Origin: an uncultured Bacteroidota bacterium
GTDB taxonomy: Bacteria; Bacteroidota; Bacteroidia; Bacteroidales; DTGW01
NCBI GenBank assembly: GCA_963701015.1
Contig: OY969556.1
Coordinates: 4,025,509 to 4,089,508, forward strand
DNA: 64,000 bases
Direction of reading: 5' to 3'
Positions 4,166 to 25,988 of the stretch are shown here, piece after piece (the first letter of the stretch is position 1; every line of letters starts with the position of its first letter). The translations under genes were made by a program, and so were the position numbers. The notes under the pieces are model-generated. The model did no database searches. It worked only from the letters and a program-made list of their open reading frames with translations, and was not told the origin of the DNA.

Positions 4166-5110
4166 TCATCGTATATATTTCCTTATTTTTAAAGCATTTT
4201 CAAATCCTATAATTTTAGCAAATAGTTTAAAATTACGTCCCCCAACTGGTTCAATATTTTTAAAACCCAATTGTTTTATTCTTTCCTTGGCTTTTAAGCC
4301 CAATTCTGGATATTTATAATAAAAGCTATAGACAAAACCCGCATAATTTATCATCAGGGCATGTCGCACCCGCAATGAATCTTCAACCTGTAATATATGT
4401 TTTTCATATAATTTATAACTTAACAATCGCGATGCAACTTTATTCTTACTTAATTGCTGGCTTACACTCGCTTCAAGTCCCGATCGGTAATACACTTTTG
4501 CTTCAGGGCAAAACTTTATTCCCTTAACTTGCAAAAGTACCCTGCAAAAAAATTCCCCATCCTGATTAATAGCCAAGCTTTCATTCCATTTTCCGGCTTT
4601 TTCTATTAGGTTTTTATTTGTTAGCCAAACCGAAGTTTGTGCCATTCCTTTTCCCTCCCAACTAGCCAACAACCAATCCATGACATTAGCCCAGTCCTTA
4701 TCGAGAAATCGCTTTGGAAATTTTGCTTCCTCAGGTTTTATATAAAACCTGTCCCATTGGCATGAAACTATTATATCGTTACCGAATTTATCAAATAACT
4801 TTAATTGGTTTTCAATTTTGTTTGGGCTTAATAAATCATCGGCATCTAAATATTGTATATAATCCCCTTTCGAAAGTTCAAAAGCTTTATTCCTTGCAGC
4901 ACAAGCCCCTTTGTTTTCCTGATTGTAAACTTTTACTACATCCGATTCAAAACTTTTAGCAATTTCATAACTTTTATCGGTAGAGCCATCGTCCACTACA
5001 ACAATTTCCTTATTTGGCCAGGATTGGCCTAAAGCTGATTGCAAAGTTTCGGCAATATATTTTTCGGAATTGTAAAGTGGGATGAGTATGGAAACTAAGG
5101 GTTGTTGCAT
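4166..5110 (-). CDS. GT2-family glycosyltransferase
   Basis: 314-aa ORF with N-terminal SILIPLYNSEKYI...VVVDDGSTDKS and a DAD motif. Confidence 0.85.
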   Translation of the reverse strand: MQQPLVSILIPLYNSEKYIAETLQSALGQSWPNKEIVVVDDGSTDKSYEIAKSFESDVVKVYNQENKGACAARNKAFELSKGDYIQYLDADDLLSPNKIENQLKLFDKFGNDIIVSCQWDRFYIKPEEAKFPKRFLDKDWANVMDWLLASWEGKGMAQTSVWLTNKNLIEKAGKWNESLAINQDGEFFCRVLLQVKGIKFCPEAKVYYRSGLEASVSQQLSKNKVASRLLSYKLYEKHILQVEDSLRVRHALMINYAGFVYSFYYKYPELGLKAKERIKQLGFKNIEPVGGRNFKLFAKIIGFENALKIRKYIR

Positions 5111-5175
5111 GTGTTGAAGTTCTTGGAAAATTTAAAAATAAATTTGGGGCTTACTTAAACTAATTACTTAGCTTA

Positions 5176-5309
5176 ACTTTGACAGATTTACCTGCTTCAA
5201 AGATTTTCAGCTTTTATTACCCCAGCCCCTAAAGGGTGAAAGCTGAAAATCAGACTGTTCCCTTTAGGGATTAAGGGTAAAAACAGGAAGATTTTCTATC
5301 TGTCAAAGT
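5176..5309. mobile_element. MITE-like element, copy 1 (about 134 bp, perfect 12-bp terminal inverted repeats)
   Basis: ACTTTGACAGAT at 5176-5187 pairs with ATCTGTCAAAGT at 5298-5309. The interior holds two hairpin units and a GATTTTCAGCTTT/AAAGCTGAAAATC inverted repeat. A second copy, inverted relative to this one, lies at 49055-49188. Confidence 0.8.
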
Positions 5310-5399
5310 ACGATTAGTTTAAAAAGCTGTATTAAATTCAAGCAATTTCAAGTCATCTTTTAAAATTTAAAAATTAAGGCAGTTGTTCTATATTTTTAT

Positions 5400-5723
5400 T
5401 TAGCATAATGTAACCCCTTCCATTAAAGCGGTTTTAATTATTCCCCTGCAATCGTCTGGTTGCCCTATTAGTACATCTATTTTCTGATCTTCCAGTTTTT
5501 CTTTTAAATGTACCAGGTATCTGATTTTTTTCCTGTATAATAAAGTTGCTTCATCCGGTAAAGGGATAACCATAAGGTCAATGTCCCCTCCGCAGGCCTG
5601 GTCGTTAACACGTGAACCGAAAAGTATTACCCTGGCTTCTTTACCAAATTCATTCCAGGCCTCCTGTACAATTATTTCTTTTTCTTTAGCGCTAATTCGC
5701 ATAGGTTTTATAGTAAAAGTCAT
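5400..5723 (-). CDS. minimal nucleotidyltransferase (MNT-type, toxin-antitoxin-associated NTase fold)
   Basis: 107-aa ORF with the LFGSRVNDQACGGDIDLMV signature (GS...DxD). No adjacent HEPN partner ORF is visible. Confidence 0.7.
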   Translation of the reverse strand: MTFTIKPMRISAKEKEIIVQEAWNEFGKEARVILFGSRVNDQACGGDIDLMVIPLPDEATLLYRKKIRYLVHLKEKLEDQKIDVLIGQPDDCRGIIKTALMEGVTLC

Positions 5724-5915
5724 ATTTCAAACAAAGATAAAAAACATTCACTGAATTAATAAATTTACGTTTGCAATGTTTCTAATCTATAAATAACCCT
5801 TCGCAAACAAGTGTTTAAGTATGGAAACTAAGGGTTGTTGCATGTATTTAAAAAAAATTGTTCTTATACTGATTAATTGTCAAAAAGTATTAAAAATGTA
5901 CCAATTGAAAAACAT
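5563..5915. repeat. direct repeat DR-A, copy 1 (about 350 bp)
   Basis: Near-identical to 9342-9627, with weaker similarity continuing to about 9695. It covers the 5' 160 bp of the MNT gene, its upstream region and a copy of the GT2 gene start. Confidence 0.9.
5819..5845 (-). repeat. duplicated 5' end of the GT2 gene (copy 2 of 3)
   Basis: GTATGGAAACTAAGGGTTGTTGCATGT matches the true start region of the 4166-5110 gene at 5086-5112. A third copy lies at 9599-9627. Confidence 0.9.
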
Positions 5916-6990
5916 TGGGAAAAGTTAACACTTCCCCGCTATTGAGGGTCTATGTCTACAGGGCAAACGCATTAAAAACGACTGTATAGGGTTAATAAAT
6001 AGCATCTTATGGCATGTTTTACTTTTTTACCTCCCTGCCCTCCTTAAAAAGGAGGGTAAACTGAGTTGTGGACTGCGAATATGATCGCCCAGTTATAGCT
6101 CCTTTTAAAGTGGTTGGGGTTAATAAAAAACAAACAAATTTTAATGCGTTTGCCCTGGCTATGTTTATGCACATGTCTCTAAATCCCATATATTTCGCCC
6201 CAATGGGGCTATTAAAATTCATTTATATTATTCTTTAAACATATCATCACTAAGTGTTTTTTAATATTTTATTGGCTCCAGAGGGGTTAAATATTTATAG
6301 ATATAAACAATTATCCTGTTATTCTAGTCCCATGGGGACGAAATATTCAAGATGTGAGTATATCCATGTCTTGTAAAGGGGAGGAAACAAATTTATTTCT
6401 TTCTCCCTCTCCGTTTGGAGAGGGTTGGGGAGAGGTCAAATTCTTTTATTCCTCTTCTTTTTGGCTTGAACCAGTTGGAGGATTAAAGGAAAACGGTGGA
6501 CGGAAAAAGGATTGAAATAATGAGCGAGGGATGTCCACTTTTGAATTTATTCTCCTTCTTTTTGGCTTGAAACCCGAAGGGCTCAACGAAGTTAACCAAA
6601 AAGAAGCAAAACTTAGCGAAGCGTTCTCATGACCGAAGGGAGTAAAGTTCAAGTTTCAAGTTTCCCCTCCTTTTATAAGAACGGCAAAGCCCTCATGACC
6701 GAAGGGAATAACGGGTTGGGGTGGTTCTTAAGGCTCGCGGATGATCGGGCAATTTAACCTCACCCTTTCTCCCTCTCCAAAAGGAGAGGGAATAAAAATT
6801 TGAGTGCTGTCGTTCACGGTTGGTACGATCTGAAAGCCAATCAGCTCGTACAAAAGGGAACCCTCTACGCCAGCTGGGGCAGCTGGCAATGAGAATATCT
6901 AAAATTATTAGGCTCTGGCATACATGGATGGTGCGAGTTTGTTGGTCAGTCAAAGGTACTGACAACATGTTCGTGCCAGTTGGTTGCTAA
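5850..6990. repeat. GC-hairpin mosaic region (modular REP/BIME/BOX-like repeats)
   Basis: A dense series of short palindromic units shared with 20.1-28.6 kb, often in opposite orientation. Examples are CTCCCTCTCC..GGAGAGGGTTGGGGAGAGG and CTTAGCGAAGCGTTCTCATGACCGAAGGGAGT. ORFs here have nonsense-like low-complexity translations. Confidence 0.85.
5959..6157. repeat. 199-bp segment bounded by a perfect 19-bp inverted repeat
   Basis: CAGGGCAAACGCATTAAAA at 5959-5977 pairs with TTTTAATGCGTTTGCCCTG at 6139-6157. The 161-bp interior contains a CCCTCCTTAAAAAGGAGGG hairpin. Confidence 0.85.
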
Positions 6991-7098
6991 ACAGATGTGA
7001 AAATTATTTCTGAATCTTATTAATTTAATTTTTTTGGCTAAAACTAAGACACAGCCGACACATCCGTGCTAGAAAGTGTATTTGTCATCTATTATTTT

Positions 7099-8277
7099 TT
7101 ACTTTATTGATCCACCCCATATAACATTTTCGACATTGCGGGGTGGATGATTGCTTATTATTGTATAATTATTTAACCCGATGTTTTTGGATAATTTAAT
7201 TAATTGTTGCAAATCAGCAGGAGTAGCTGTTTCTTTTACCTCAAAAGCATGACTATTGTTTAAAACAAAATCAATTTCATGCCCGGTTTTCAAGGCATAA
7301 TAATTTAATATACCAAAATGATGCAACTGGTTGTAAATAGCATTTTCAAATAATACCCCACCCGAAACTTTTGCAAGTCGATTCAATATTCCATTGTCGC
7401 AAAAAAACACCTTTTTTGCCTTAACAATTTCACGGTCAGGGTTTTTTGACGTTACCGCAATACGTTGAATAATATAAGTTTTCTCAAACAATTCAATATA
7501 ATTTGTTACGGTTGGCTTAGACAAGCCTGTAAGAGCAGAAATTTTCGCAAAATCGAGTTTGGAAGCAGTACGAGAGGCCAACATGATTAATAAATTTCTT
7601 ATGTTGTTGGCATTCTTAAAATCAGAAAGCCACTTTATATCTATGTTAATGTACGAACTTATTAAATCTTCAAGAATATCTGTTTTTTGATTGATAGCAT
7701 CTGTTAGTACAACTTCGGGCATACCACCGAAATTTAAATATTCATTATAATATCCTTGTAGCCTTTCATAATCGTTTTGCTGAAATACCTGTTTGCTAAA
7801 GTTGAACGGAGTCCACGCAACTGATTTAAAAGTCAGGAATTCACCAAAGTCGAGTGGGTAAAGCTCAAATATTTTTTTCCTACCGGCTAATGATTCCGAA
7901 AAAAGGTTTTTTAAATAGTAAGAGCTCGAGCCTGTAATGATGAATTTAATACTATAATTGTCGTACAAATATTTTACAACGCTCGGCAGGTTTGGTAATA
8001 ATTGAGCCTCGTCAATTGCAATTGCCAATTGAGAGTCAAAATTTATGCCTCGCTGTTTTAGTGCCAATATTATGTTTTCGTAATTCGGGTCATTAAACAA
8101 ATTGCGGTTATCAAGTCGTTCTAAATCAAAATAAACACTGTTGTTTTGAAAATATTCGTCCAGCAATTTTTTTACCAGGGTAGTTTTACCAGTACGTCGT
8201 AAACCTGTAATTATGCTAACTTGTGGTTGTTTGGCATGTTCTACAAGCGCTGCATGTATTTTTCGTTCAAAAAACAT
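7099..8277 (-). CDS. AAA+ ATPase (AAA_14 + DUF4143 type)
   Basis: 392-aa ORF with Walker A (ITGLRRTGKTTL) and the architecture of the widespread DUF4143 ATP-binding proteins. Confidence 0.75.
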   Translation of the reverse strand: MFFERKIHAALVEHAKQPQVSIITGLRRTGKTTLVKKLLDEYFQNNSVYFDLERLDNRNLFNDPNYENIILALKQRGINFDSQLAIAIDEAQLLPNLPSVVKYLYDNYSIKFIITGSSSYYLKNLFSESLAGRKKIFELYPLDFGEFLTFKSVAWTPFNFSKQVFQQNDYERLQGYYNEYLNFGGMPEVVLTDAINQKTDILEDLISSYINIDIKWLSDFKNANNIRNLLIMLASRTASKLDFAKISALTGLSKPTVTNYIELFEKTYIIQRIAVTSKNPDREIVKAKKVFFCDNGILNRLAKVSGGVLFENAIYNQLHHFGILNYYALKTGHEIDFVLNNSHAFEVKETATPADLQQLIKLSKNIGLNNYTIISNHPPRNVENVIWGGSIK

Positions 8278-8517
8278 AGTCTGTAATTCTGTTTTTGATT
8301 TTCAAATTTACTAAAATAAAAATCATATTTTACTTTTAGTTGAATATTTAGTAAAATACAATATTACTTTTTTTGTAGCTATATATGTAGTATGGACAAC
8401 ATGTTGAGGTCAGGTTCCCTTTATTCCTTACCAATATTTTTGGCTTGCAAGCGATGCAAAATTTCAAGGGTGAAGTTATAAAATGCCTAGTAATTGTTGG
8501 CTTTAATTATAGCCAAT

Positions 8518-8598
8518 ATGTCCGCGCCAGCAAATGGATAATGAAGTTACAAACTTCAGGAATATATAGGCACTAGTTGCAGACTTGCGCCATACTGG
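8518..8598. repeat. about 82-bp direct repeat flanking the DUF4160/DUF2442 cassette (left copy)
   Basis: ATGTCCGCGCCAGCAAATGGATAATGAAGTTACAAACTTCAGGAATATATAGGCACTAGTTGCAGACTTGCGCCATACTGG is about 80% identical to 9224-9306. Confidence 0.8.
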
Positions 8599-8663
8599 CA
8601 TTTAACACTACAAATTGAGAAACCGAGGAAATTTATTTATCTTTGTATATAAAGATAGAGTTT

Positions 8664-8966
8664 ATGCCTAAATTGTATGAATATTTCGGATTGATTTTTC
8701 TATTTTACTCTCAAGAGCATGAACCGATTCATGTTCATGGGAAATATCAAGATAAGGAAAGTAAAGCTGAGATTATCTTTGAGAATGGGAAGTTTAAGGA
8801 AATTGTAATTAAAGATGTTCCAGGTAAAGCTCCATTAGATACACAAAATCTTAAAAAGTTCAAAAAAGTAATTGAATTGTACCGTGATGATATAGTTAGA
8901 AAATGGATTGACTTTTTTGTTTATAATATTGAGTTTCCATCTGAAAAAATAACAAAAAAAATATAA
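8664..8966 (+). CDS. DUF4160-family small protein
   Basis: The ORF has an EHEPIHVHGKY motif. The ATG at 8664 is preferred over the TTG at 8643. It sits 2 nt from the downstream DUF2442-like ORF. Confidence 0.65.
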   Translation: MPKLYEYFGLIFLFYSQEHEPIHVHGKYQDKESKAEIIFENGKFKEIVIKDVPGKAPLDTQNLKKFKKVIELYRDDIVRKWIDFFVYNIEFPSEKITKKI

Positions 8967-8968
8967 TT

Positions 8969-9211
8969 ATGGTCATATCGATTGATATAGCTGATTATGT
9001 AGGAGAATATAAAATTAAATTTTTATTCTCTGATGGAGTTGAGAAATTAATTGATTTCTCTGAGTTTTTAAAAGGAGCAAAGAATCCAATGACAAAAAAA
9101 TATCTTGATAAACAATTGTTCAAATCATATTCAATTAATTATGGAGATATAATTTGGAATGATTATGAAATGTGTTTCCCAATTTGGGATTTACATGAAG
9201 GGAAAATATAA
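8969..9211 (+). CDS. DUF2442-family small protein
   Basis: 80-aa ORF tightly coupled to the DUF4160 ORF. The same two-gene arrangement recurs at 25427-25877. Confidence 0.6.
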   Translation: MVISIDIADYVGEYKIKFLFSDGVEKLIDFSEFLKGAKNPMTKKYLDKQLFKSYSINYGDIIWNDYEMCFPIWDLHEGKI

Positions 9212-9223
9212 ACGCCGGCTAAA

Positions 9224-9306
9224 ATGTCCACGCAAGTAAAGGGATAATATTAAGTTATAAACTTCAAGAATATATAGGCACTAGTCGCAGATTTGTGCCA
9301 CACTAG
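9224..9306. repeat. about 82-bp direct repeat flanking the DUF4160/DUF2442 cassette (right copy)
   Basis: See 8518-8598. It contains a GGCAC...GTGCC stem. Confidence 0.8.
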
Positions 9307-9334
9307 TTATAAAAAGCGTAGTTGCAAACTACGC

Positions 9335-9502
9335 TTAGCTTGGGATAACCATAAGGTCAATGTCCCCTCCGCGGGCCTGGTCGTTAACACGTGAACCGAA
9401 AAGTATTACCCTGGCTTCTTTACCAAATTCATTCCAGGCCTCCTGTACAATTATTTCTTTTTCTTTAGCGCTAATTCGCATAGGTTTTATAGTAAAAGGC
9501 AT
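9335..9502 (-). pseudogene. truncated duplicate of the MNT nucleotidyltransferase gene (first about 54 codons)
   Basis: Encodes MPFTIKPMRISAKEKEIIVQEAWNEFGKEARVILFGSRVNDQARGGDIDLMVIPS*. It is near-identical to the 5' part of 5400-5723, and homology stops at 9342. Confidence 0.85.
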
Positions 9503-9695
9503 ATTTCAAACAAAGATAAAAAACATTCACTGAATTAATAAATTTACGTTTGCAATGTTTCTAATCTATAAATAACCCTTCGCAAACAAGTGTTTAAGCA
9601 TGGAAACTAAGGGTTGTTGCATGTGTTTTAAAAAAATTATCATTGTTACTGATTATTTGTAAAAAGTGTTATAAAAGTACAAATTGGTAAACTTA
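9342..9695. repeat. direct repeat DR-A, copy 2
   Basis: Aligns with 5563-5915. It includes the third copy of the GT2 gene start (9599-9627). Confidence 0.9.
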
Positions 9696-9706
9696 GTGAA
9701 TCTTTT

Positions 9707-9737
9707 CCCCTCCTGGGAGGGGATTGGGGTGGGTTTC
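9707..9737 (+). repeat. hairpin + TTGGGG unit (REP-like)
   Basis: CCCCTCCTGGGAGGGGATTGGGGTGGGTTTC. The same architecture occurs about 20 times in the window. Confidence 0.85.
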
Positions 9738-9759
9738 AATAGAAATTTAGACAAGCATA

Positions 9760-9903
9760 CTATACAAAACCCTGACAATATTTTAAAGAATTTACTACAA
9801 TTTGTCTAATTTCTTTTCTTGTAAATACGTCAATCCAATTAATTGTAGTAATTGTAATAAAATATAGTTTGTCGTCACTTGGAATTTTGTACTTCTCCTA
9901 CAT
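9760..9903 (-). pseudogene. relic of a Y1 (IS200/RAYT-like) tyrosine transposase N-terminus
   Basis: The minus strand reads ATG TAG then EKYKIPSDDKLYFITITTINWIDVFTRKEIRQIVVNSLKYCQ. This resembles the conserved N-terminal region of Bacteroidota Y1_Tnp/REP-associated transposases. There is a stop at codon 2, and the relic is truncated next to a REP-like unit. Confidence 0.55.
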
Positions 9904-10134
9904 AATAACTAAAAAATATGTAAAATAGGATAACTTTCGCTATTGTGAAAATTATTTCTGTATTTGAATAATTAAGAGCTATTTTGTTGAGCAGTCAAAG
10001 GCACTGACAGCATGTCCGCGCCATCGGGGGTAATTTTGCAATAGTTATAGCCTTTTTTTAATTATAATTTTATTCATAATTAAATTTTTATTCATGATAT
10101 GGACCTATAGTATAGTAATTAAATAACTACATAA

Positions 10135-11253
10135 TCATTTTTTTATTTTTAATGATTGCCTATTATTTATATAATTTACGCTTTCTTTTAAAAGTAATTT
10201 TACTTTATAAGTATGTTTTTCGGAAATGAAATAAATTAAATATGCAATAATCAAACCTATCATTAATTCAACAAAATAATATGAAATAGATTTAATACAT
10301 AAATTCTTACTCCTAGGGAATCCAAAGTATGACATTAATCCCATTAGTGGATAATGAGTCAAATATAAGCTATATGAAAATTTAGCTAATTTACTGCCTA
10401 ATTTGTCAATTGCAACTGAAAGTTTTTTCTTTGGAATTGTTGTAATTAAACTATATATTATAAAACTAGTAAATATAGCTATGAATATGATTGCAATATT
10501 ACGATTTAAGCCATTTAAATTATTAATTGTAATGCTTCTTGACTTTGAAAAAGTCTGAGATAACACAAAGGAAGCGAAAAGTAAGATAATTAGAATTACT
10601 ATTTTTAATTTCCTATATGAAATATTATTGCGAGGTAATAAAAATGCAAAAGCCCCCATGAACCAAATGAATAAAAATAATGGGTTTAATCTGATAAAAA
10701 TATATATACAAAATGCAAGAATTAAGAAGGGTAGAAGTATATAGGTATTATTTTTCCTGCAAATAACCATAATGCAACCCATTAATACATAAAACCATAC
10801 TTCGTATGACAATGACCATAAAACTACATTATAATTACAACCTGTAATTATACCCTGAGTAGCAAAGAAACTGCCCATTATATCAATATAAGGAATAGAT
10901 TTATTCATTATAATATCAATTATTACCACTAGTATTGTAGATGCAGCTAAAGGCAGTAAAATACGCACTACCCTATCTATTGAATAGGATTTTATATCTA
11001 CCTTATTGTTTAAGATTTTTTCAATTGAATTGCCCCCAACAAGAAAACCACTTAGTATAAAAAATACAACAACAGATTCTTCTCCAAACCTTGTAAGTAA
11101 ATAAAAGATTTGAACGTATAAATTATGCTGGGTTTGAGGAAGTAAACCGTATTCAACAAAGAACATACCCCTGTAATGTGCTGCCATAACAAGGAATGCT
11201 GAAATAAATCTTAATAAGTCGATCCAATAATAGTGTTTACTGCTTATATCCAT
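10135..11253 (-). CDS. acyltransferase family 3 membrane protein (O-acyltransferase)
   Basis: 372-aa polytopic ORF with an N-terminal WIDLLRFISAFLVMAAHY motif. Confidence 0.8.
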   Translation of the reverse strand: MDISSKHYYWIDLLRFISAFLVMAAHYRGMFFVEYGLLPQTQHNLYVQIFYLLTRFGEESVVVFFILSGFLVGGNSIEKILNNKVDIKSYSIDRVVRILLPLAASTILVVIIDIIMNKSIPYIDIMGSFFATQGIITGCNYNVVLWSLSYEVWFYVLMGCIMVICRKNNTYILLPFLILAFCIYIFIRLNPLFLFIWFMGAFAFLLPRNNISYRKLKIVILIILLFASFVLSQTFSKSRSITINNLNGLNRNIAIIFIAIFTSFIIYSLITTIPKKKLSVAIDKLGSKLAKFSYSLYLTHYPLMGLMSYFGFPRSKNLCIKSISYYFVELMIGLIIAYLIYFISEKHTYKVKLLLKESVNYINNRQSLKIKK

Positions 11254-17863: not shown

Positions 17864-18760
17864 TTATTTCAATCGTTCAAGAACTTGCTCAACATTTTTT
17901 GTAGCTATCAAATTTACATAAGGATAATGTAACCGTTTAGTATCTTCGGTTAATGTATTATTTTTTGAATTATATACGTACCATTTATAACCAAAAGAAA
18001 CAAAATTATCATAAAGTTCATAACAATTTGTACCTGCTGCAAATAAATTACTTTCAGTAAATTCAACCATAAAAACAGGCGCATCCTGCTTACTTAAAAG
18101 TTCTTTAGCCCCTTTTAAAACCTCCATTTCCCAACCTTCAACATCCATTTTAATAAGTGCAATATCTTTTGAATAGATATTATTTTCAGCAAGGTAACTA
18201 TCAAGTGTTGTTACATTAATTTCAATTTTTTTATCAAAACTAATTTCAGAATTTTGAGCAAATGTATTCCAGGCATCGTGGCCATCAGTTGAAACATTTA
18301 AAAATAATTTTCCTTTATTTGAAGATAAGCCAATGTTATAGGCGGTTATTATATTTTGGAATTCATTTAATTCAATATTCTCTTTTAATCGTGAAAATGT
18401 TATGGGTGTAGGTTCAAAGGCATATATTCTACCCTTAGGGGAAATAATTTGGGCTGCATGTAAAGAAAAAAGTCCAATGTTTGCGCCAATATCAATAAAA
18501 GTATCTGCAGGCTTGAGAAATTTTCTCAAAAATATTATTTCATCTTGTTCAAAACCTGTATAAATGAGATTTGATAAAATGCTGTCTTTATAAAAGTTAA
18601 TTTGTAATTTATCATTGAGTTTACCTACAAAACTTGTGTTATTTCCAAATAAGTTATTCCAATTATCTTCTTCAATTTTCTTTTTTTTAATATTTTGTTT
18701 TTTAATATAATTATTCGCTCGGTTAGCAATTGCATATGCAATTCTTAAATCTAAATTCAT
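17864..18760 (-). CDS. FkbM-family methyltransferase
   Basis: FIDIGANIGLFSL...IYAFEPTPITF motif. It lies directly downstream of wzt. Confidence 0.8.
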   Translation of the reverse strand: MNLDLRIAYAIANRANNYIKKQNIKKKKIEEDNWNNLFGNNTSFVGKLNDKLQINFYKDSILSNLIYTGFEQDEIIFLRKFLKPADTFIDIGANIGLFSLHAAQIISPKGRIYAFEPTPITFSRLKENIELNEFQNIITAYNIGLSSNKGKLFLNVSTDGHDAWNTFAQNSEISFDKKIEINVTTLDSYLAENNIYSKDIALIKMDVEGWEMEVLKGAKELLSKQDAPVFMVEFTESNLFAAGTNCYELYDNFVSFGYKWYVYNSKNNTLTEDTKRLHYPYVNLIATKNVEQVLERLK

Positions 18761-18774
18761 TTATTTTAAATTTT

Positions 18775-20112
18775 TTAAATAGTTTCTGAATTAATCCAAT
18801 CAATTTTTGGCATTATTACACCAGGCCTGTTGTCGGCATATTGTTTGTTAAGTCCATCAATGTTAATAATAGAAAAGGGATATATAACTTTTTCAAAGCT
18901 TATCCATTTTACATTATGTATTCCAATGGCAATATTAATAATATAGGAACCAGGTTTTAAAAAATTTGAAGGAATTATTGCAGTTGATTTATAATTTCCA
19001 ATTTCAAAAGTCTCTGTTCGTATAATATCATCATGAAAAGTTCTGAAAAGTGTAAGCCCACTTTTAGAATCAATTAAATCAAAACCTATTCTTAGCCCAC
19101 TTATTTTTTTCTTTACAAAATATTCATATTCAATAATTATTTCATCTTTTGTATAAAACTCATTAGCATTTGATCCTTTCTGATATATATTTAACTTTTT
19201 AAGTTTAAAATATTCATCATCTGGTAAATTTATTTCTGCCAAAGAATCTCTGCTTTCTTTATTATTATTGGCAGATGATAAATAATATTCAATACCTTCA
19301 TTAACATTACCATTATAAACTGTTGTTCCGTTTTGAAGTACATATAAATTATTGCATAAATTCGCAATAGCAGTCATATTATGGCTCACAAATATAACAG
19401 TTCGGCCTTGTCCCTGGCTTACTTCCTGCATTTTGCCAATGGCTTTTTTCTGGAACTCGGCATCGCCCACGGCCAATACTTCATCAACCACCAATATTTC
19501 CGGCTCCAAATGGGCTGCCACTGCAAAGCCCAGGCGCACGGTCATACCGCTACTGTAACGTTTTACGGGAGTGTCAATGTATTTTGCTACGCCGGCAAAA
19601 TCAACAATTTCGTCCAGCTTCTTGTCAATTTCCCACTTGCGCATGCCCATTATGGTTCCATTCACGTAAATGTTTTCGCGGCCGGTCATTTCGGGGTGAA
19701 AGCCCGTGCCAACTTCCAGTAGGCTGGCAATACGGCCTTTTACTTTTATACTGCCCGTGGTGGGAGAGGTTACCTTGGAGAGTATTTTTAGCAAGGTGCT
19801 TTTACCGGCACCGTTTTTGCCTATAATACCCAGCACTTCGCCCTGCTTAACTTCAAGGTTAATATCCTTTAAAGCCCAAACTAATTCGGCCTCCCCCCTG
19901 CCCCCTCCATGAGAGGGGGAGTTAGCCTTCCCCCCTTTGGGGGGATTGAGGGGGGCTAATATATTTGTCTGCCCTACTTTGGTATAAGGGTCGGGTTGCC
20001 CAAGCAGGTTCATGCGCCACCAGCGGTTAAGGTCGTGGCTAAGCGTGCCGGTGCCTATTTGCCCCAGGCGGTAAAGTTTCGAGAGGTTTTCAATTTTAAT
20101 TACGGTGGACAT
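18775..20112 (-). CDS. wzt: O-antigen/glycan ABC exporter ATP-binding protein Wzt, with a C-terminal glycan-binding-type domain
   Basis: Walker A GKNGAGKSTLLK, signature YSSGMTVRL and Walker B ILVVDE, plus an extra C-terminal domain of about 190 aa. It carries an in-frame GC-rich palindromic insertion at 19888-19956. Confidence 0.85.
   Translation of the reverse strand: MSTVIKIENLSKLYRLGQIGTGTLSHDLNRWWRMNLLGQPDPYTKVGQTNILAPLNPPKGGKANSPSHGGGRGEAELVWALKDINLEVKQGEVLGIIGKNGAGKSTLLKILSKVTSPTTGSIKVKGRIASLLEVGTGFHPEMTGRENIYVNGTIMGMRKWEIDKKLDEIVDFAGVAKYIDTPVKRYSSGMTVRLGFAVAAHLEPEILVVDEVLAVGDAEFQKKAIGKMQEVSQGQGRTVIFVSHNMTAIANLCNNLYVLQNGTTVYNGNVNEGIEYYLSSANNNKESRDSLAEINLPDDEYFKLKKLNIYQKGSNANEFYTKDEIIIEYEYFVKKKISGLRIGFDLIDSKSGLTLFRTFHDDIIRTETFEIGNYKSTAIIPSNFLKPGSYIINIAIGIHNVKWISFEKVIYPFSIINIDGLNKQYADNRPGVIMPKIDWINSETI
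19888..19956. repeat. REP-like double-hairpin unit inserted in frame within wzt
   Basis: CCCCCTC-catga-GAGGGGG and CCCCCC-ttt-GGGGGG followed by ATTGAGGGGGG. On the coding strand it is translated as ILAPLNPPKGGKANSPSHGGGRGEAE. Confidence 0.8.
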
Positions 20113-20775
20113 TGTGTAAATTACAAATTACAAAGGACAATTTGCAAAATTAGCGAATTTATACCAAAACGGAAAATGAAAAAGGGAAAAGGCCTCTCCC
20201 CAACGCTACTCCCTTCGGTCGTGAGAACGCTGCGCTTAGTTCTCCCAAGGAGAGGGAGAAAGATAAAAAATAATTTCTTAAAGTCCCTTTCTTTAGGAAA
20301 GGGTTGGGGATAGGCTACTTTAAAGAGCGGTGGCCAGATCATCCGCGTAAGCCAGCGTTGGCTTTGAGCGAGGGGTTTCGGATGATCTTGAATTTTACTC
20401 CCTTCGGTCATGAGAACGCTTCGCTAAGTTTTGCTTCTTTTTGTGTCAAGACAAAAAGAAGAGGAATAAAAGAAATTGGCCTCTCCCCAGCCCTCCCCTA
20501 AGGAGAGGGAGAAAGATAAAAAATTGTGAATTTACTTTTCTTTGCCTGCCATACATAGAAAAGGTAACAAAAGAAAAATCACTACGGATACCATCCCCAA
20601 GCCAATCTATTCGCACATGCCACCGCCACTTGTGCCGATTGGCTTTCGGATCGCACTATCCGTGGACGTCAACGCGCAAAGCAATTTAATGAATTATCTT
20701 CTTATCATGCGAAGCATGAAAGAGTGTGAGCCAGATCATCCGCGCGAGCCAGTGTTGGCTTTGAGCGAGGGGTAT
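20113..20775. repeat. GC-hairpin mosaic region upstream of wzt
   Basis: Contains a vestigial heptamer tract (20166-20192), the GATCATCCG...CGGATGATC long hairpin (twice), the 32-bp mini-insert (20208-20239, 20397-20428), hairpin+TTGGGG units and the 89-bp repeat (20579-20667). Confidence 0.85.
20145..20164 (-). promoter_or_regulatory. conserved promoter-like box (TAATTTTG on the coding strand), 33 nt upstream of the wzt ATG
   Basis: The plus strand reads CAAAATTAGCGAATTTATAC, so the coding strand carries TAATTTTG, which matches the Bacteroidota -7 consensus TAnnTTTG. The box recurs upstream of 5 other starts. Confidence 0.55.
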
Positions 20776-20841
20776 AGTTTCGAGAGGTTTTACCTTCGGT
20801 GAGAACGCTTCGCTTAGTTCAATTTTAATTACGGTTGACAT
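20776..20841 (-). pseudogene. duplicated 5' end of wzt (38 bp of CDS) interrupted by a 28-bp mini-insertion
   Basis: AGTTTCGAGAGGTTTT[ACCTTCGGTGAGAACGCTTCGCTTAGTT]CAATTTTAATTACGGTTGACAT compared with the uninterrupted 20075-20112. Confidence 0.9.
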
Positions 20842-20887
20842 TGTGTTAATTACAAATGACTAATTACTAATTACAAATTACAATTTA

Positions 20888-20907
20888 CAAAATTAGCGAA
20901 ATTATAA
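20888..20907 (-). promoter_or_regulatory. conserved promoter-like box copy
   Basis: CAAAATTAGCGAAATTATAA, 47 nt upstream of the relic wzt start. Confidence 0.45.
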
Positions 20908-20908
20908 T

Positions 20909-21141
20909 AAAACGGAAAATGGTTGGCGGAAAACGGTAAACGGAGTAAGGTAAAAGGGTAAACGGAGAAGGGAGAACGGAAAACGGTTGGCGGAAAACGG
21001 AAGAAGGGGAAAGGAAAACGGAAAACGGGGAATGGAGGAAGGAGGACGGAAAACGGTAAACGGAAAACGGTAAACGGAGAAGGGAAGACGGTAAACGGAG
21101 AAGGGAGAATGGAGGAAGGAAAACGAGGAATGGAGGAAGGA
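20909..21141. repeat. purine-rich heptamer minisatellite, array 1 (about 33 units)
   Basis: GGAAAAC/GGTAAAC/GGAGAAG/GGAGAAC units stay in a continuous 7-bp phase, with one 8-bp slip. Confidence 0.9.
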
Positions 21142-21183
21142 TAAATGAAACTGTCTTATTTGTTATTGAAACCCACCCCTTAG

Positions 21184-21199
21184 CCCCTCCCGGGAGGGG
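21184..21199 (-). terminator. candidate hairpin terminator or insulator (perfect 16-bp palindrome)
   Basis: CCCCTCCCGGGAGGGG lies 18 nt downstream of the stop of the 21218-22006 ORF. There is no clear U-tract. Confidence 0.3.
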
Positions 21200-21217
21200 A
21201 AATTGAATTATGTTTTT

Positions 21218-22565
21218 TCATTTTACCACCTCCCAATGCCCCCCTTTATCGGGGCCAATGCGTTTAATTGCTTTTCTGTCTTTTAATATTTTTAAATATC
21301 TTTGAATAGACCGTTCTGTAAGGGTCATTCTTTTTGCCAAATCGGAAGCTGATAATTGATTGTTTATTTTCAATAATTTAATTATTTCTATCTCATTTTC
21401 TACGACATTTTCTACGACATTTTCGGTGTCCTTATCGAATGTTTCAATATTTGCAGTCGTCTTTTGTTTGGTATAACTTAATTCAACAAAAAAACCGTTT
21501 GGAATTTCGTTGTAATCGAAATTCATTGTCGGGTATTGCCTAAGTTCATCACGTATCCGTTTAAACCCACTGCCATATTTTTCAATATCGCCGGTTAAAT
21601 AAAATGCTTCGGCCAGTAATTTATTTCGGGCATAGGCCTGATAATTATTGGTTTTTAAATCGGCAATAGTTAGATTGCCAAACAAAGTGCCGGGATTAAA
21701 AAAAGTAATGCTTTTGTCGAATATCTTAATTTGAATATCAACAGGGCTTAAATAATCGCGATGGATTAGCGAGTTTAATACCAATTCCCTGAGCGCTGGC
21801 AAGGGGTATTCAAATATTTCGGTTCGTTGTGTTGTTCTACCTGAAATTTCGAAAGCTACTTTTATTTGCGAAATTAAATATTTCATGGTTTCATCAACAG
21901 CCTCAAACAAGGGTAACCTCAACATTTTATCGTCAATAATAAGCGATGGGGTTTTAAAACGGCCTAAATGCACATTATACGAAATATCGGTTTTTGCAAA
22001 AAGCAAGTATGCTGCATTTGTAATTTTATTATTTGAAATGAACCTGAGTTTTTCGAGATTTTCAATCGTAGTCCCTTCTAAATTTAAAACGCCCGATAGT
22101 ATTTACTTTCTGTATAAATTTATCTACCTTTTTGAGGTCAATATCCACTAAATTTATATTATTTGCAGGATATGAATCCCATGAAACCTGCAGCGATTGC
22201 ATGCTTAAATCGGCTATCTCAAGTGCAGTCAACTGGTGATTCGAGTTTTTTACCCTTTTATAATAACGGCCTTTAAACGAAATTGGCTTTACCGGAAATT
22301 CATGAATAATTAAGGCAACTGTTTTTTTGCCTTTATAATTTATTAATTCAATATCAGGAATAATGGAGGGTTGTGTTTTTACTTTTATTTCGTTTATCCA
22401 TTTTTGAAAAGTTTCTTTGCCATACGTGAAGTTTTTATTAATACTTCCGTCATCGTTAATGCCAACAAATACTTTACCCCCTTTACAATTGGCATAGGCA
22501 ACCAAAGTTTCAATAACAGTATCGTTAAAGCCTGATTTATATTCTATGTGCTCGTTTTCAAGCAT
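21218..22565 (-). pseudogene. Schlafen/AlbA_2 + HATPase_c_4-like + wHTH putative regulator, split by a frameshift
   Basis: ORFs 22062-22565 (AlbA_2 N-terminus, HIEYKSGF...) and 21218-22006 join to read ...GRFKLEGTTIENLEKLRFISNNKITNAAYLLFAKTD if one T is removed from the run at about 22080-22090. Confidence 0.75.
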
Positions 22566-22598
22566 TAGGTAGTATTTTTTTTAACACTTTACCAATTA

Positions 22599-22618
22599 CA
22601 AAATTAGTGAATTTATAA
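22599..22618 (-). promoter_or_regulatory. conserved promoter-like box copy
   Basis: CAAAATTAGTGAATTTATAA, 34 nt upstream of the AlbA_2 ORF start. Confidence 0.5.
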
Positions 22619-22902
22619 TAAAACGGAAGACGGTAAACGGAGAAGGGAAAACGGAGAAGGGAGAACGAAAAACGGAGAATGGTAAACGGAGAAGGGAAAA
22701 CGGAAAACGAGGAATGGTAAACGGAGAAGGGAGAACGGAAAACGGAAAACGAAAAACGGAGAATGGTAAACGGAGAAGGGAGAACGGAAAACGGAAAACG
22801 GAAAACGGGGAATGGAAAACGGAGAAGGGAGAACGGAAAAAGGGAAACGGAGAAGGGAAATCGAAAAACGGAAAAGGGAAAACGGAGAAAGGAAAACGAG
22901 GA
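22619..22902. repeat. purine-rich heptamer minisatellite, array 2 (about 40 units)
   Basis: Same heptamer family, with a 49-bp higher-order repeat (GAGAATGGTAAACGGAGAAGGGAGAACGGAAAACGGAAAACGAAAAACG). Confidence 0.9.
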
Positions 22903-23099
22903 TAATTTTTTAAAAATTAGGGCAAAATTTCAAAATTATGCAAATTCGTATTCCACACTATTTACAGGTATTTGTCATCATTTACTTTAATTAAAAATAT
23001 CTATAGCTTTTTCAATTAAATAGGCTTTTATCTCTTCTTCATTAACAGCCGGTACAATATATTCAACAGGCTCGGAGTAATCAATGTCATTAAAATAGG

Positions 23100-23603
23100 C
23101 TAACTGGCACTGAATTGTTTCTCGGAAAATAAATCATTGTATATAGTTAAGGCCTTTTCTGAAACTTGTTTAATGGAATAAAATTTTCTTAAAATAAAAT
23201 ATAAATCAACATAATCTTTCCATTTCGATCGTCTGCTCATGGCAAATGCCTTCATAGCAGCTAATGTTAATAAATCAGGCATTTTTAAATACCCCTCAAA
23301 TTCACACGACGCAATTATTTGATAAGGGTACTGAAAAAAAGTAAATTTTACATCTTGAATAGTTACATTTAGCTGTTCATAAACCCTTCTGTTAACAATA
23401 TACTTTTTATGTAACGAATCAATCTTTTTAAGCAACCTTTTAGGTTGGATTTCATTTTGTTTAAACAAATCAAAATCAATAGATCTTCTATGGCCAATGT
23501 GTAATGCAATAGCAGTTCCTCCAACAAGATAAAATTCTCTTTTAAACAATTTCACCAATGGCAATAATTCTAATTGATCAGTATTTAAAATTTCTTTATG
23601 CAT
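23100..23603 (-). CDS. AbiEii/AbiGii-type nucleotidyltransferase toxin-like protein (3' end frameshifted)
   Basis: LVGGTAIALHIGHRRSIDFDLF motif. A further 37 codons (QLAYFNDIDYSEPVEYIVPAVNEEEIKAYLIEKAIDIFN*) continue in another frame down to 22987. Confidence 0.65.
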   Translation of the reverse strand: MHKEILNTDQLELLPLVKLFKREFYLVGGTAIALHIGHRRSIDFDLFKQNEIQPKRLLKKIDSLHKKYIVNRRVYEQLNVTIQDVKFTFFQYPYQIIASCEFEGYLKMPDLLTLAAMKAFAMSRRSKWKDYVDLYFILRKFYSIKQVSEKALTIYNDLFSEKQFSAS

Positions 23604-23871
23604 ATCGTGAGAAAAGAATAAAAAAGTAATTATAAATTTCAGGAAAGAAATTCATTTTCTTCCTACCTTGCATATTATTAAACACTTTTGCCACGTTTTC
23701 AATACCCATTATTGAAAAAAGTTTATGCACTGCATCTAATGAGCCATAATTTAAAATGTGTTCTACCAATAATTCGTGGCTTATATTCTCCTTTTCTTTT
23801 TCGGGTGTGTACCAAAAAAGGGAGCTGTTTTGGCGTATAAATGCTTTTAGTTCTTCAGTATTTTCAGGCAT
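23596..23871 (-). CDS. small partner protein of the AbiEii-like gene (putative antitoxin)
   Basis: 91-aa ORF overlapping the downstream NTase gene by 8 nt. Confidence 0.45.
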   Translation of the reverse strand: MPENTEELKAFIRQNSSLFWYTPEKEKENISHELLVEHILNYGSLDAVHKLFSIMGIENVAKVFNNMQGRKKMNFFPEIYNYFFILFSRYA

Positions 23872-23898
23872 CTAGATAGTATTAGAAATATAAAATTA

Positions 23899-24194
23899 CT
23901 AAAATATACTTGTAAACATTTTATATAAGGTAATTTTGCCTGCCCCGTTACGGCCAGTTATGCCCACACGGTCGTTTGTTTTATTTCAAAATTTAAATCC
24001 TTTAAAGCCCAAAAATCTTCCATTTCATCGTTGGCAATAAGCTGTCCGCCTTTAAATATTTGGCGGGTTTTAGATGCTATTTGCCGGACTTTATTGGCCA
24101 GAACATCGCGCAAAGCGGTATAACGCTCGTGCTTTTCGTGGCCTATAATATAACTTTTGCCCAGGTTCTCGGCTTTAATTACTGTATGGCTCAT
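23899..24194 (-). pseudogene. relic of a second, divergent wzt/tagH-type ABC ATPase gene (N-terminal about 90 codons, frameshifted and truncated)
   Basis: Encodes MSHTVIKAENLGKSYIIGH...FWALKDLNFEIKQ, then after a 1-nt shift DRVGITGRNGAGKITL (Walker A). Homology ends where the AbiE-like pair begins. Confidence 0.85.
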
Positions 24195-24240
24195 GAAGAC
24201 AATTACTAATTACTTATCACAAATGTCAAATGACAATTTG

Positions 24241-24260
24241 CAAAATTAGTGAATTTATAA
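24241..24260 (-). promoter_or_regulatory. conserved promoter-like box copy
   Basis: CAAAATTAGTGAATTTATAA, 47 nt upstream of the relic wzt' ATG. Confidence 0.5.
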
Positions 24261-24280
24261 CAAAACAGAAAATTGTAGTC

Positions 24281-24550
24281 GGAAGACGGAGAAGGGAAAA
24301 AGGTGGACGGAAAACGGAAAACGGAGAATGGAAAACGGAGGATGGTGGACGGAAAACGGAGAAGGGAAAACGGAAAACGGAGAATGGTAAACGGAGAAGG
24401 GAGAATGGTAAACGGAGAAGGGAGAATGGTAAACGGAGAAGGGAGAATGGTAAACGGAGAAGGGAGAACGGAAAACGAAAGACGGAGAATGGTAAACGGA
24501 GAAGGGAGAACGGAAAACGGAGAAAGGAAAACGGAAAACGGGGAAGAGAA
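24281..24550. repeat. purine-rich heptamer minisatellite, array 3 (about 38 units)
   Basis: Includes 3 perfect copies and 1 near-perfect copy of the 21-bp unit GGTAAACGGAGAAGGGAGAAT at 24386-24469. Confidence 0.9.
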
Positions 24551-24835
24551 ATAATATTTGTGAGATTGTTGTAATTTGAAACCCACCCTTTAGCCCCTCC
24601 CGGGAGGGGAAATATTTTTTCGTATCACACAAAGTGTGAAAGAGCGATGGCTTGATCATCCGAGCGAGCCTTAAGAACCACCCATTAGCCCCTCCTTTAA
24701 AAGGAGGGGAAACTGATTTGTTAACTTTACTCGACTTCGTCTAATGAACTAAGCGAAGCGTTCTCACGAGTTTTACGAGTAGCTTAGCCTTTGGCGTTCT
24801 CACGACCAAAGGGAATAAATCGCTTCGCTTAGACA
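24551..24835. repeat. conserved 285-bp GC-hairpin block (copy a)
   Basis: Collinear with 28126-28410, and partly with 26221-26345 and 21142-21215. It contains CCCCTCCCGGGAGGGG, TCACAC-aaa-GTGTGA, GATCATCCG... and CCCCTCCTTTAAAAGGAGGGG. Confidence 0.9.
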
Positions 24836-25400
24836 GCCCGCAGCTGAAATTGTATTTTTTTTATCACACTTTGTGTGAAAGAGCGTGAACCAGATCATCC
24901 GCGCGAGCCAGCGTGGGCATTGAGCGAGGGGTTTCGGATGATCTTGAATTTTACTCCCTTCGGTCATGAGAACGCTTCGCTAAGTTTTGCTTCTTTTTGG
25001 TTCATGCCAAAAAGAAGGGGAATGAATGCAAAAGATTTGCTGTTGTATTTATTATATGCAATGTTGGCTAGTAGCGATTTATTTTTCTTTGCTTGCCATG
25101 CAAAGAAAAGGTAACAAAACTTAGCGATATGGTTTACTCACTGTGGTCATGAGAACGCGTTGCTAAGTTCATGAACGAAGGGAGCAAAGGGGTTGGGGAT
25201 AGGCCTTTTGGCTTTCGGACCGCACCATCTGTGGACTCCCTACGCGCAAAGCTCAAAACTCTTTACAGTTTACAACCATTTACCGTTAACCGTTTTCCTT
25301 TTATCCGTCAAATGGTTCAAGCCAAAAATAAGAGGAATGCTGGAAAAAGCTTTATTTGTAAATTAAAATCAGCTTTAACCGCCTATCGAGGAAATGAAGT
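24836..25400. repeat. GC-hairpin mosaic region
   Basis: Same modules as 20113-20775, in similar order. Confidence 0.85.
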
Positions 25401-25426
25401 TGAATTTAACCATTTTCCCATTATTG

Positions 25427-25663
25427 TTAATATAACAATGCTTCAACTAAAATATCTTCATCAAGAATTTCCCAATGAATCCCTTCGCCACCACCAATAA
25501 ACCTATAATTTTCCCTATCTTTTTTGGAAGCATCGCGCAAACTGGGAAACCAATCAATTGGTACTGAAAGTTCTCTTCCATCGTCAAGTAAAATATGCAT
25601 CATTAAGTCTGAAAACCAAACTTTTGTTGCATTAGCCGATTTAATAATTGTTGTGATATTCAT
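25427..25663 (-). CDS. DUF2442-family small protein
   Basis: 78-aa ORF (ILLDDGRELSVPIDWFPSLRDAS...GIHWEILDEDI) that overlaps the upstream DUF4160 ORF. Confidence 0.65.
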   Translation of the reverse strand: MNITTIIKSANATKVWFSDLMMHILLDDGRELSVPIDWFPSLRDASKKDRENYRFIGGGEGIHWEILDEDILVEALLY

Positions 25664-25877
25664 TCCATTTAATATTAAGAAAGTCTAAATTTTGAATTAT
25701 TAAATTTCTTATTTCATGAATCTCTGAAGAATTAAAATGTTTTGATTTAATAATTTCAACAGGATTTAATAAAAATTTTGCGGTACCTTCTGCTTTTTCA
25801 ATATGAATATGTGCAGGAGAATGATCATTAACATAAAAGAAAAACCTGTATCCATTAATATTTAATATTGTTGGCAT
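25641..25877 (-). CDS. DUF4160-family small protein
   Basis: 78-aa ORF with a HSPAHIHIEKAEGTAKF motif. Confidence 0.65.
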   Translation of the reverse strand: MPTILNINGYRFFFYVNDHSPAHIHIEKAEGTAKFLLNPVEIIKSKHFNSSEIHEIRNLIIQNLDFLNIKWNEYHNNY

Positions 25878-25905
25878 AACAATTTAGATATTGTTTGACA
25901 AAACT

Positions 25906-25925
25906 CAAAATTAGCGAATAAAATA
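25906..25925 (-). promoter_or_regulatory. conserved promoter-like box copy (proximal)
   Basis: CAAAATTAGCGAATAAAATA, 29 nt upstream of the DUF4160 ATG. Confidence 0.5.
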
Positions 25926-25968
25926 ACTTATTGCCAATGACTAATTACTGATTATAAATGATAATTTT

Positions 25969-25988
25969 CAAAATTAGCGAATTTATAA
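25969..25988 (-). promoter_or_regulatory. conserved promoter-like box copy (distal, tandem)
   Basis: CAAAATTAGCGAATTTATAA, directly abutting array 4. Confidence 0.45.

Follow-up and report, generated by a model that had tools for sequence, protein, structure and literature searches.

Why does the start of one glycosyltransferase gene occur three times between two genes of a polysaccharide operon, and how did the DNA between the copies come to lie there? The locus belongs to an uncultured Bacteroidota bacterium of the lineage DTGW01 (GCA_963701015.1), and the whole stretch that was analysed, here called the window, comprises 64,000 nt of contig OY969556.1 (positions 4,025,509 to 4,089,508). 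On the minus strand of the window, an Acyl_transf_3 gene (10135-11253, identified by Pfam) is the operon gene upstream of the interval in question, and an intact GT2 glycosyltransferase gene (4166-5110; PF00535, E = 6.9e-37), whose N-terminus aligns with its homologues, lies downstream. In the closest GT2 relatives the gene follows its neighbour at a distance of 3 nt in a compact operon, and the 4.5 kb found here is therefore regarded as an insertion. The best GT2 homologue outside the source genome is 61% identical, and those in GTDB representatives reach at most 47%. Relatives with an uninterrupted acyltransferase-GT2 junction were sought and none was found, the 61% relative showing the compact operon pattern only.

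An earlier reading of the letters alone (the original prediction) had taken the interval for non-operon DNA in blocks delimited by direct repeats that include the GT2 start. It proposed two tandem insertions at the same site, the 5′ end of the GT2 gene, made either by site-specific integration with duplication of an att site or by serial homologous recombination. The inserted nature of the interval, its delimitation by such repeats and its serial build-up were upheld. The explanation that we favour, tentatively, is that the three GT2 starts are the scars of two nested insertions of small selfish cassettes, independent of a recombinase and driven by homology or repair, in which the target was duplicated and the products were filtered by selection.

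Three GT2 starts and a long repeat of mixed identity

The repeated piece is a core of 28 nt (ACATGCAACAACCCTTAGTTTCCATACT, minus strand), which consists of 2 nt of start context (AC) and the first 26 nt of the GT2 open reading frame (ORF) and encodes MQQPLVSI(L). Four residues of this start (V6, S7, I8 and L9) are conserved in GT2 homologues. Minus-strand matches to the core were found at 5085-5112 (c0) and 5818-5845 (c1) without mismatch, and at 9597-9624 (c2) with one mismatch, while the number of matches expected by chance was 0, as judged from 100 dinucleotide-preserving shuffles. The triplication was thus confirmed at the sites originally named, but with exact positions shifted by 1-3 nt, which is immaterial. 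On its 3′ side, c0 runs into GT2 and is the functional start of that gene; c1 and c2 run into the same leader sequence, S, and this fusion gives an ORF of 18 codons. Identity between c0 and c2 extends 3 nt further upstream, to 9627. Among all ORFs of at least 70 amino acids in the window, a start copied elsewhere was found only for GT2 and wzt, apart from the duplicate of the MNT gene described below.

Three sequences adjoin the core on its upstream side. U0 (5113-5152), the spacer directly upstream of the true GT2 start, is unrelated to the other two, and a relationship with either was rejected by alignment. U1 (5846-5915, minus strand), upstream of c1, and U2 (9628-9696, minus strand), upstream of c2 on the acyltransferase side, are old homologues: over these ~70 nt, 53 of 73 aligned columns are identical (73%; z = 7 against shuffles). 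No further U-like copy was found in the window with nhmmer.

Beyond the core, a long direct repeat links the two outer copies. It was detected by self-BLAST at 5563-5907 and 9342-9686 (95.4% over 346 nt), and its full extent is 5563-5915 and 9342-9695. The 350-bp repeat that had been predicted does exist, but it is not uniform. The part made of the core, leader S and the first 161 nt of MNT (5563-5845 against 9342-9624) carries 3 substitutions in 283 nt and is 98.9% identical, as against 73% in U. Within it, the second copy of leader S and of the first 161 nt of MNT is a relic (9342-9596, minus strand), with 2 substitutions relative to 5563-5817. The truncated MNT copy that had been reported at 9335-9502 was also recovered, as a 55-amino-acid ORF with weak matches to NTP_transf_2 and Polbeta, and directly after the relic a hairpin followed by a U-run (9317-9337, minus strand; fold -11.6 kcal/mol) resembles a terminator in fold and sequence.

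Since the non-functional c1 is identical to c0, the copies of the core, S and the 5′ part of MNT are young; and since c1 equals c0 while U1 and U2 are only 73% identical, U1 and U2 had already diverged when these copies formed. Judged by these identities, 99% against 73% within one 350-bp repeat points to parts of mixed age, unlike what a single duplication in place would predict. Nor does the arrangement correspond to a simple tandem duplication: foreign DNA, 0.7 kb in one case and 3.4 kb in the other, stands between the copies, and identity drops at the edge of the core. An old duplication of 350-680 nt held alike by gene conversion was considered and rejected, as c1 is identical to c0 but U is 27% diverged. 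The inner breakpoint of the second duplication is inside MNT, 161 nt into its ORF (5563/9342), rather than in GT2. It follows that the third GT2 start came along as a passenger of the duplicated upstream region of MNT, and the idea of two insertions at the same site, the GT2 5′ end, was not supported.

No dyad symmetry was found in the core, which has a fold of 0 kcal/mol, no better than shuffles, and no inverted repeat visible in its 28 nt. Neither a tRNA nor a member of an Rfam family was found in the window, so that an origin of the core, or of the D4 motif described below, as a fragment of a tRNA or other RNA was rejected. Neither the core nor a conserved 21-mer of MNT had a match in the metagenome contigs or viral contigs searched, and the whole 4.5 kb had none against plasmids and phages. 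A sequence at 8389-8405 on the minus strand (AACATGTTGTCCATACT) resembles the core without its middle 12-13 nt (ACATG...TCCATACT); this was seen post hoc and may be due to chance.

Cassettes of the two blocks and recurrence of the scar

Block 1, between c0 and c1, holds an MNT cassette (5379-5817, minus strand; defined by Pfam and by a match to the metagenomic relative L021). It consists of leader S (5724-5817), the MNT ORF (5400-5723) with its Polbeta/NTP_transf_2 domain, and the first 28 nt of a partner ORF (5379-5406). The MNT protein of L021 is 84% identical, and window 5379-5782 matches L021 487-890 over 404 nt without gaps at 85% nucleotide identity; the match continues more weakly, with a 14-nt indel, up to the junction of core and S. 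Leader S is therefore part of the MNT cassette, since the sequence that precedes MNT in L021 is its homologue. A reading of S as a decayed continuation of GT2 was rejected, as the colinear alignment (p about 0.1-0.14) was no better than chance. S carries a promoter-like TATCTTTG box; boxes of the TAnnTTTG type were read by eye and are leads only, a sigma-70 style promoter scan being uninformative for this organism.

At the other end, homology to L021 stops 28 nt into the partner ORF, which indicates that the toxin partner was lost in the window. A more distant relative, L022, has a full-length NTase_sub_bind partner of 154 amino acids. With the partner cut after 28 nt, what remains here is not an intact toxin-antitoxin (TA) module of the MNT type, which pairs MNT with a whole HEPN/NTase_sub_bind partner. 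In L021 the MNT cassette stands behind an unrelated ATPase gene and without the core; that this ATPase is an orthologue of the one in the window was rejected by comparison. Similar 13-mers are present at both ends of the L021 homology block (487-499, GAAACACTGCAAA; 881-893, GAACAACTGCAAA), and the MNT cassette of the window breaks off exactly within the second of them (the counterpart of 881-893).

Adjoining the cassette, the element at 5153-5325 has the characters of a miniature inverted-repeat transposable element (MITE), with terminal inverted repeats (ACTTTGACAGAT...), an inverted second copy at 49048-49188 and a fold z of -6.2. A 22-nt A/T-rich direct repeat (5121-5142 and 5356-5377, 86%) brackets the MITE and its flanks. 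One of its copies adjoins the truncated end of the MNT cassette; the repeat may be due to chance in A/T-rich DNA.

Block 2, between c1 and c2, had been presented as a single element, and here the original prediction did not hold: an ATPase cassette with its own ends elsewhere, a repeat-flanked gene pair and a mosaic of MITEs and hairpins are each separate, so that the block is composite. The gene calls themselves (MNT, the AAA_14/DUF4143 ATPase, DUF4160, DUF2442 and Acyl_transf_3) agreed with Pfam. The ATPase cassette (7096-8371, minus strand) extends from ~94 nt upstream of the ORF (7099-8277) to 3-4 nt past its stop codon, and was delimited by shared homology ends in addition to Pfam and PADLOC. 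Its ends were compared across five other loci, which represent at least two further contexts. Homology ends at 8371 and 7095/7096 in L026, L027 (GCA_038213375.1, JBBQTB010000004.1), L028 and L030, and begins at 8357 in L029. The cassettes of the relatives lie at 9729-11006 (L026), 9907-11182 (L027), 490-1766 (L030) and 137-1397 (L029), with nucleotide identities of 82-85% and amino acid identities of 84-90%. Of 8000 candidate proteins that were scored, 3069 reached E <= 1e-60 and count as close relatives of the ATPase. Counting the window, the cassette occurs in at least three unrelated contexts, all of them polysaccharide loci, and a paralogous ATPase in L027 and L029 has the same layout (100 nt, ORF, 3 nt). 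No terminal inverted repeats and no short target duplication were seen at the ends of block 1, block 2 or the ATPase cassette. The protein has AAA_14 and DUF4143 domains by Pfam and matches the PADLOC candidate defence profile PDC-S01 over residues 1-348 (E = 1.9e-64); on this family match it is a candidate defence protein. DUF4143 is listed in the PD-(D/E)XK nuclease superfamily (PMC3424549).

The second unit of block 2 is a TA-like pair on the plus strand (8643-9211) of a DUF4160 gene (8643-8966) and a DUF2442 gene (8969-9211), identified by Pfam, with a weak match to a DhiT toxin model. It is flanked by the direct repeats R1 (8518-8599) and R2 (9224-9307), both on the plus strand, which were found by repeat scan (56-80 nt, ~85-88% identity; D3 of the scan, 56 nt at 88%). 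The remaining ~1 kb (5916-6932) is a mosaic of hairpins and MITE fragments, pieces of which are shared with the wzm-wzt zone at 20.2-26.5 kb by self-comparison. Two further small repeats of the plus strand, D4a (6933-6978) and D10a (6996-7025), together spanning 6933-7025, have their partners at 9944-10023 in reverse order (D10b, 9944-9973; D4b, 9978-10023). The D4, D10 and R repeats are 83-88% identical. A wider homology between the spacers 5916-6932 and 9696-9943 was tried and rejected, the matches being the small D4 and D10 repeats only.

Two side observations concern this zone. A motif AGGYACT-N12-GYGCCA, often after ATGTCCGCGCCA, was seen on the plus strand only and only inside the insertion zone of 6.9-10.0 kb (6933-6978, 8390-8413, 8518-8529/8569-8594, 9224-9235/9277-9302 and 9978-10023). 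At 5959-6157, perfect 19-nt terminal inverted repeats (CAGGGCAAACGCATTAAAA) lie 161 nt apart, with a GC-rich hairpin nested inside.

The scar is not confined to GT2. As had been suggested, the start of wzt shows a scar of the same kind, a duplicated start around an insert. The copies, on the minus strand at ~20075-20170 (the proximal, true start) and ~20777-20925 (distal), bracket a mosaic of ~600 nt. The duplicated piece consists of the first 38 nt of wzt and about 60-85 nt of a promoter-like element with heptamer repeats and a TAATTTTG box; the distal copy is interrupted by a 26-nt MITE fragment. In L026, which belongs to another genome, the orthologous ATPase cassette has wzm on one side and an epimerase-like gene on the other. 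The intact epimerase-like gene (MKRALITGITGQDG at 11146) lies downstream of the cassette, which is itself preceded by a copy of that gene's first ~11 codons (MKRALITNITGSY* at 9601) together with its upstream region and a heptamer block. The duplicated length is about 150 nt, and filler sequences of no explained origin lie between the cassette ends and the repeats. L030 has the same context as L026.

In every case the duplicated segment is derived from the target: it comprises the start of whichever gene follows the insert and, in some cases, that gene's upstream region as well. Its length is 28 nt for GT2, about 100 for wzt, about 150 for L026 and 283-350 for MNT, with none below about 28, and the inner breakpoints fall at +26 in GT2, +38 in wzt, about +33 in the L026 gene and +161 in MNT. 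A motif common to the GT2, wzt and L026 duplications was looked for and rejected, as the duplicated sequences are mutually unrelated. On this view, the long repeat of the GT2 region is the same scar applied to MNT, the copied upstream stretch of which happens to include c1. One-directional cassette arrays with similar repeat-rich spacers are found in L027, in L031 (GCA_964470955.1, CAYYFF010000068.1) and in the wzm-wzt zone of the window (zone 2), and such spacers provide portable homology.

Routes to a duplicated gene start

Under the explanation that we favour, promoter-bearing cassettes would have entered a polysaccharide operon of the O-antigen, ABC-transporter type in two steps. In the first, a cassette with MNT, an antitoxin-type nucleotidyltransferase, may have entered GT2 26 nt into its ORF, leaving the core on both sides (c1 and c0); this cassette would be the one now truncated 28 nt into its partner gene, with the MITE adjoining. 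In the second, further DNA may have entered MNT 161 nt into its ORF, leaving 283 nt of core, leader and MNT 5′ part on both sides. Its cargo would comprise the ATPase cassette, the DUF4160/DUF2442 pair, hairpins, MITEs and U1, a diverged upstream region of GT2. Each insertion would have duplicated the target that it split, and the downstream gene would thereby have kept an intact start. The repeats would then be segments of homology or overlap used in insertion independent of a recombinase, and not att sites of a dedicated integrase.

The most likely route would be a single crossover of the Campbell type between the chromosome and circularised incoming DNA, which would carry the cassette or cassettes together with a copy of the target segment and would stem from a related genome that has a locus of this kind. 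Such integration places an insert between direct repeats of a shared segment of any length above a minimum, requires no dedicated recombinase and is reversible. It fits the present data in that the repeats equal the shared segment (all at least 28 nt), general recombination suffices and recombination between the repeats could remove the blocks again. It also needs incoming DNA that already contains the target segment, and an intermediate of this sort is one we infer here. A donor from a related genome would account for U1 as a foreign allele of U2. The divergence of U1 and U2 (73%) and of the D4, D10 and R repeats (83-88%) is roughly in the range of the metagenomic relatives, and because relatives at about 82-86% nucleotide identity exist, a donor of that divergence is plausible. 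Selection would retain products in which the operon genes are intact; as the nearest relatives pack these genes 3 nt apart, only products that rebuild the start would be expected to survive. The serial homologous recombination offered by the original prediction thus stays viable and is near to our reading. The crossover explains the spread of such cassettes better than their first origin.

Several points weigh against this explanation. The circular intermediates and the donor are both hypothetical. Homologous recombination covers the spread of a cassette that is already flanked by repeats, and not the origin of the first duplication. At 28 nt the core is barely long enough for RecA-dependent exchange. 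It is joined to three different upstream and two different downstream sequences, always at identical nucleotides, which is just what a site-specific system predicts. The history of U1 and U2 is complicated, for the donor would have to be diverged and yet have an almost identical MNT cassette in the corresponding position. Finally, the negative result for recombinases covers 64 kb of a 4.47-Mb genome, and a trans-acting enzyme could be encoded elsewhere.

A site-specific origin would make the core an attB in the GT2 5′ end and the blocks decayed elements, like cis-mobilizable elements (CIMEs), inserted in tandem by an integrase encoded elsewhere, each bringing a replacement start. We consider this unlikely. 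It would explain why the core occurs three times and is sharply bounded at identical nucleotides on either side, and why both blocks begin with the same S-MNT arm; moreover, an order of attL-block-attI-block-attR with a duplicated end of the target gene is the published signature of accretion by CIMEs and integrative and conjugative elements (PMC5704250). The ICESt1-type elements of Streptococcus resemble the present interval in their tandem blocks, their decayed cargo without an integrase and their intact target gene. The differences are that the repeats here cover a 5′ end, that one boundary lies inside a previously inserted gene, that the blocks are composite, with cassettes that occur separately elsewhere with their own ends, and that the sister scars at wzt and L026 use unrelated sequences of other lengths (28 to 350 nt in all). 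Among the long ORFs of the 64 kb, none was found to encode an integrase, recombinase or transposase domain, and symmetry of the recombinase type is lacking in the core. Furthermore, the arm beside the core is wholly different between the blocks (U0 against U1), the relative of the MNT cassette in L021 lacks the core, and the repeat of high identity ends inside MNT and not at a second att. A repeated core is present at the block ends; an architecture of recombinase sites, or blocks occurring elsewhere as single units with the same att, is not. The window free of recombinases, the core without a dyad, the contrast of U0 and U1, the modular cargo, the core-less L021 and the unrelated, variable sister scars argue against att-site duplication and lead us to favour insertion independent of a recombinase.

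Duplication and insertion could also take place during replication or repair. A nascent strand may leave the target, copy a cassette elsewhere and return upstream of its exit; or two independent illegitimate end-joinings may occur onto sister chromosomes. By either path the insert would end up between copies of a target stretch of any length, and deletion products would be lost by selection. For the first events, both template switching and double illegitimate joining deserve to be taken seriously, although this route is improbable on the whole. Duplications of variable length and unrelated sequence, the failure to find a recombinase, hairpin-rich DNA at the junctions and the filler between cassette ends and repeats in L026 are all in keeping with it, and bacteria readily form duplications mediated by microhomology (PMC11111574). 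No clear microhomology was seen, however, at the junctions of the GT2, wzt and L026 duplications compared, the route does not by itself account for the old homology of U1 and U2, and the identical ends of the ATPase cassette across contexts are left unexplained. The order of events could also be reversed, with spontaneous tandem duplications of promoter and start, possibly selected for promoter capture, supplying a spare copy as a safe landing place for cassettes and MITEs. There are documented tandem duplications that put a neighbouring promoter before a transferred gene (PMC11111574), promoters are widely reused (PMC3488235), and the distal wzt copy does have a later 26-nt MITE fragment inside it. 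We nevertheless find this quite improbable: foreign DNA always lies exactly between the copies and never splits one, c1 is preceded by U1 and not by U0, which a tandem duplication of the present arrangement would require, and the identity of the 350-nt repeat is uneven. Least of all do we expect an assembly artefact in which a repeat was collapsed or joined wrongly. Short-read assemblers can be led astray by 283-nt repeats that are 99% identical, but the copies carry substitutions and sit in different, diverged flanks, which makes an artefact very improbable; in addition, the source contig is 4.47 Mb long and the same architecture is present in independent assemblies of related organisms.

Integrons and clusters of attC sites lacking integron integrases (CALINs) hold arrays of small cassettes, mostly in one orientation, often with TA or unknown genes, with similar repeats between them and precise ends. 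The arrays of zone 2, L027 and L031 and the precise cassette ends recall these systems. In contrast to them, the repeats between cassettes are here derived from targets or promoters, or are heptamer tandem repeats, and not structured attC sites, and the cassettes have their own promoter region of ~95 nt. No IntI-like ORF was found in the window, and no convincing RYYYAAC...GTTRRRY pair, attC having been judged by eye only. An insert flanked by a direct duplication of its target also recalls transposition. Target-site duplications of transposons have a fixed length of 2-15 nt, as against 28-350 nt and variable here; no transposase was found, and the blocks lack terminal inverted repeats, which only the small MITE at 5153-5325 possesses. 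Promoter propagation and reuse place the same upstream region, sometimes with first codons, before non-homologous genes (PMC3488235, PMC3575422), and a duplication can place a promoter before a transferred gene and activate it (PMC11111574). These reports deal with promoters that spread or with simple tandem units, whereas here the repeats bracket foreign cassettes and the downstream operon gene is preserved.

What the comparison provides is a well-resolved, recurrent insertion scar without an integrase in polysaccharide loci of this lineage. A wider and rather doubtful reading is an undescribed form of mobility, in a Bacteroidota-like lineage, of small promoter-bearing cassettes (AAA_14/DUF4143 ATPases, MNT and other TA genes) with precise ends and no recognisable recombinase. 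Operon genes would be the preferred landing sites of such cassettes, either within their first ~10-50 codons or in the repeat-rich spacers ahead of them; the start would be regenerated by a long, variable target duplication, and arrays would build up in polysaccharide loci. The ATPase-nuclease of a cassette, or a trans-acting enzyme, could drive the movement. Polysaccharide (O-antigen or capsule) loci are major determinants of phage and host interactions, and this operon was colonised by TA and candidate defence cassettes without losing genes of its own, since a rebuilt gene start remains after each insertion. Should the scar prove general, the upstream region and first codons (~9-13) of a downstream gene, duplicated around an insert, would be a sequence signature by which integrase-less cassette insertions could be found and ordered in time. 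It would also mark a route, homology-driven or dependent on an unknown enzyme, for the spread of defence and TA genes among related genomes. If plain recombination and selection suffice, the interval is an ordinary case of island build-up, if a nicely resolved one.

The surrounding polysaccharide locus

The window has a G+C content of 32%. By Pfam and profile annotation of its ORFs, the polysaccharide locus begins at ~30.5 kb, continues to 0.2 kb and lies entirely on the minus strand. Among its genes are a NusG/UpxY-like gene (29943-30545), wzm (26968-27837), wzt (18775-20112), several GT2, GT1 and GT11 glycosyltransferases, FkbM methyltransferases and two Acyl_transf_3 genes. One protein of the window has a Por_Secre_tail domain, an indication of the Bacteroidota/FCB group.

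The gap between wzm and wzt (~6.8 kb; zone 20113-28150) contains MITE mosaics, an AbiEii gene (23100-23603) and a split Schlafen-AlbA_2 / HATPase_c_4-HTH gene (22062-22565 and 21218-22006). In this zone the element of CCGTTTT-type heptamer repeats and a TAATTTTG box is present in 5-6 direct copies, one of them a variant upstream of wzm, and it precedes most of the cassettes between wzt and wzm. In L031 (2616-12236) four AAA_14/DUF4143 ATPase genes, a HipB/HipA pair and a ParE-like pair follow one another in one direction, and every spacer has blocks of several kinds of heptamer tandem repeat and then a TATATTTG-type box. The L027 cluster has four paralogous ATPase cassettes, glycosyltransferase fragments and three copies of a 120-nt element E (9748, 11257 and 12957); PDDEXK_2 (Rpn/YhgA-like) genes are located at the ends of its glycosyltransferase cluster (764-1642 and 18158-19006).

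Outside the locus, a recQ gene is split into a helicase/RQC part (41334-42875) and an HRDC part (42946-43524) by a frameshift near 42868-42875, and the split gene (41334-43524) is either a pseudogene or the result of a sequencing error.

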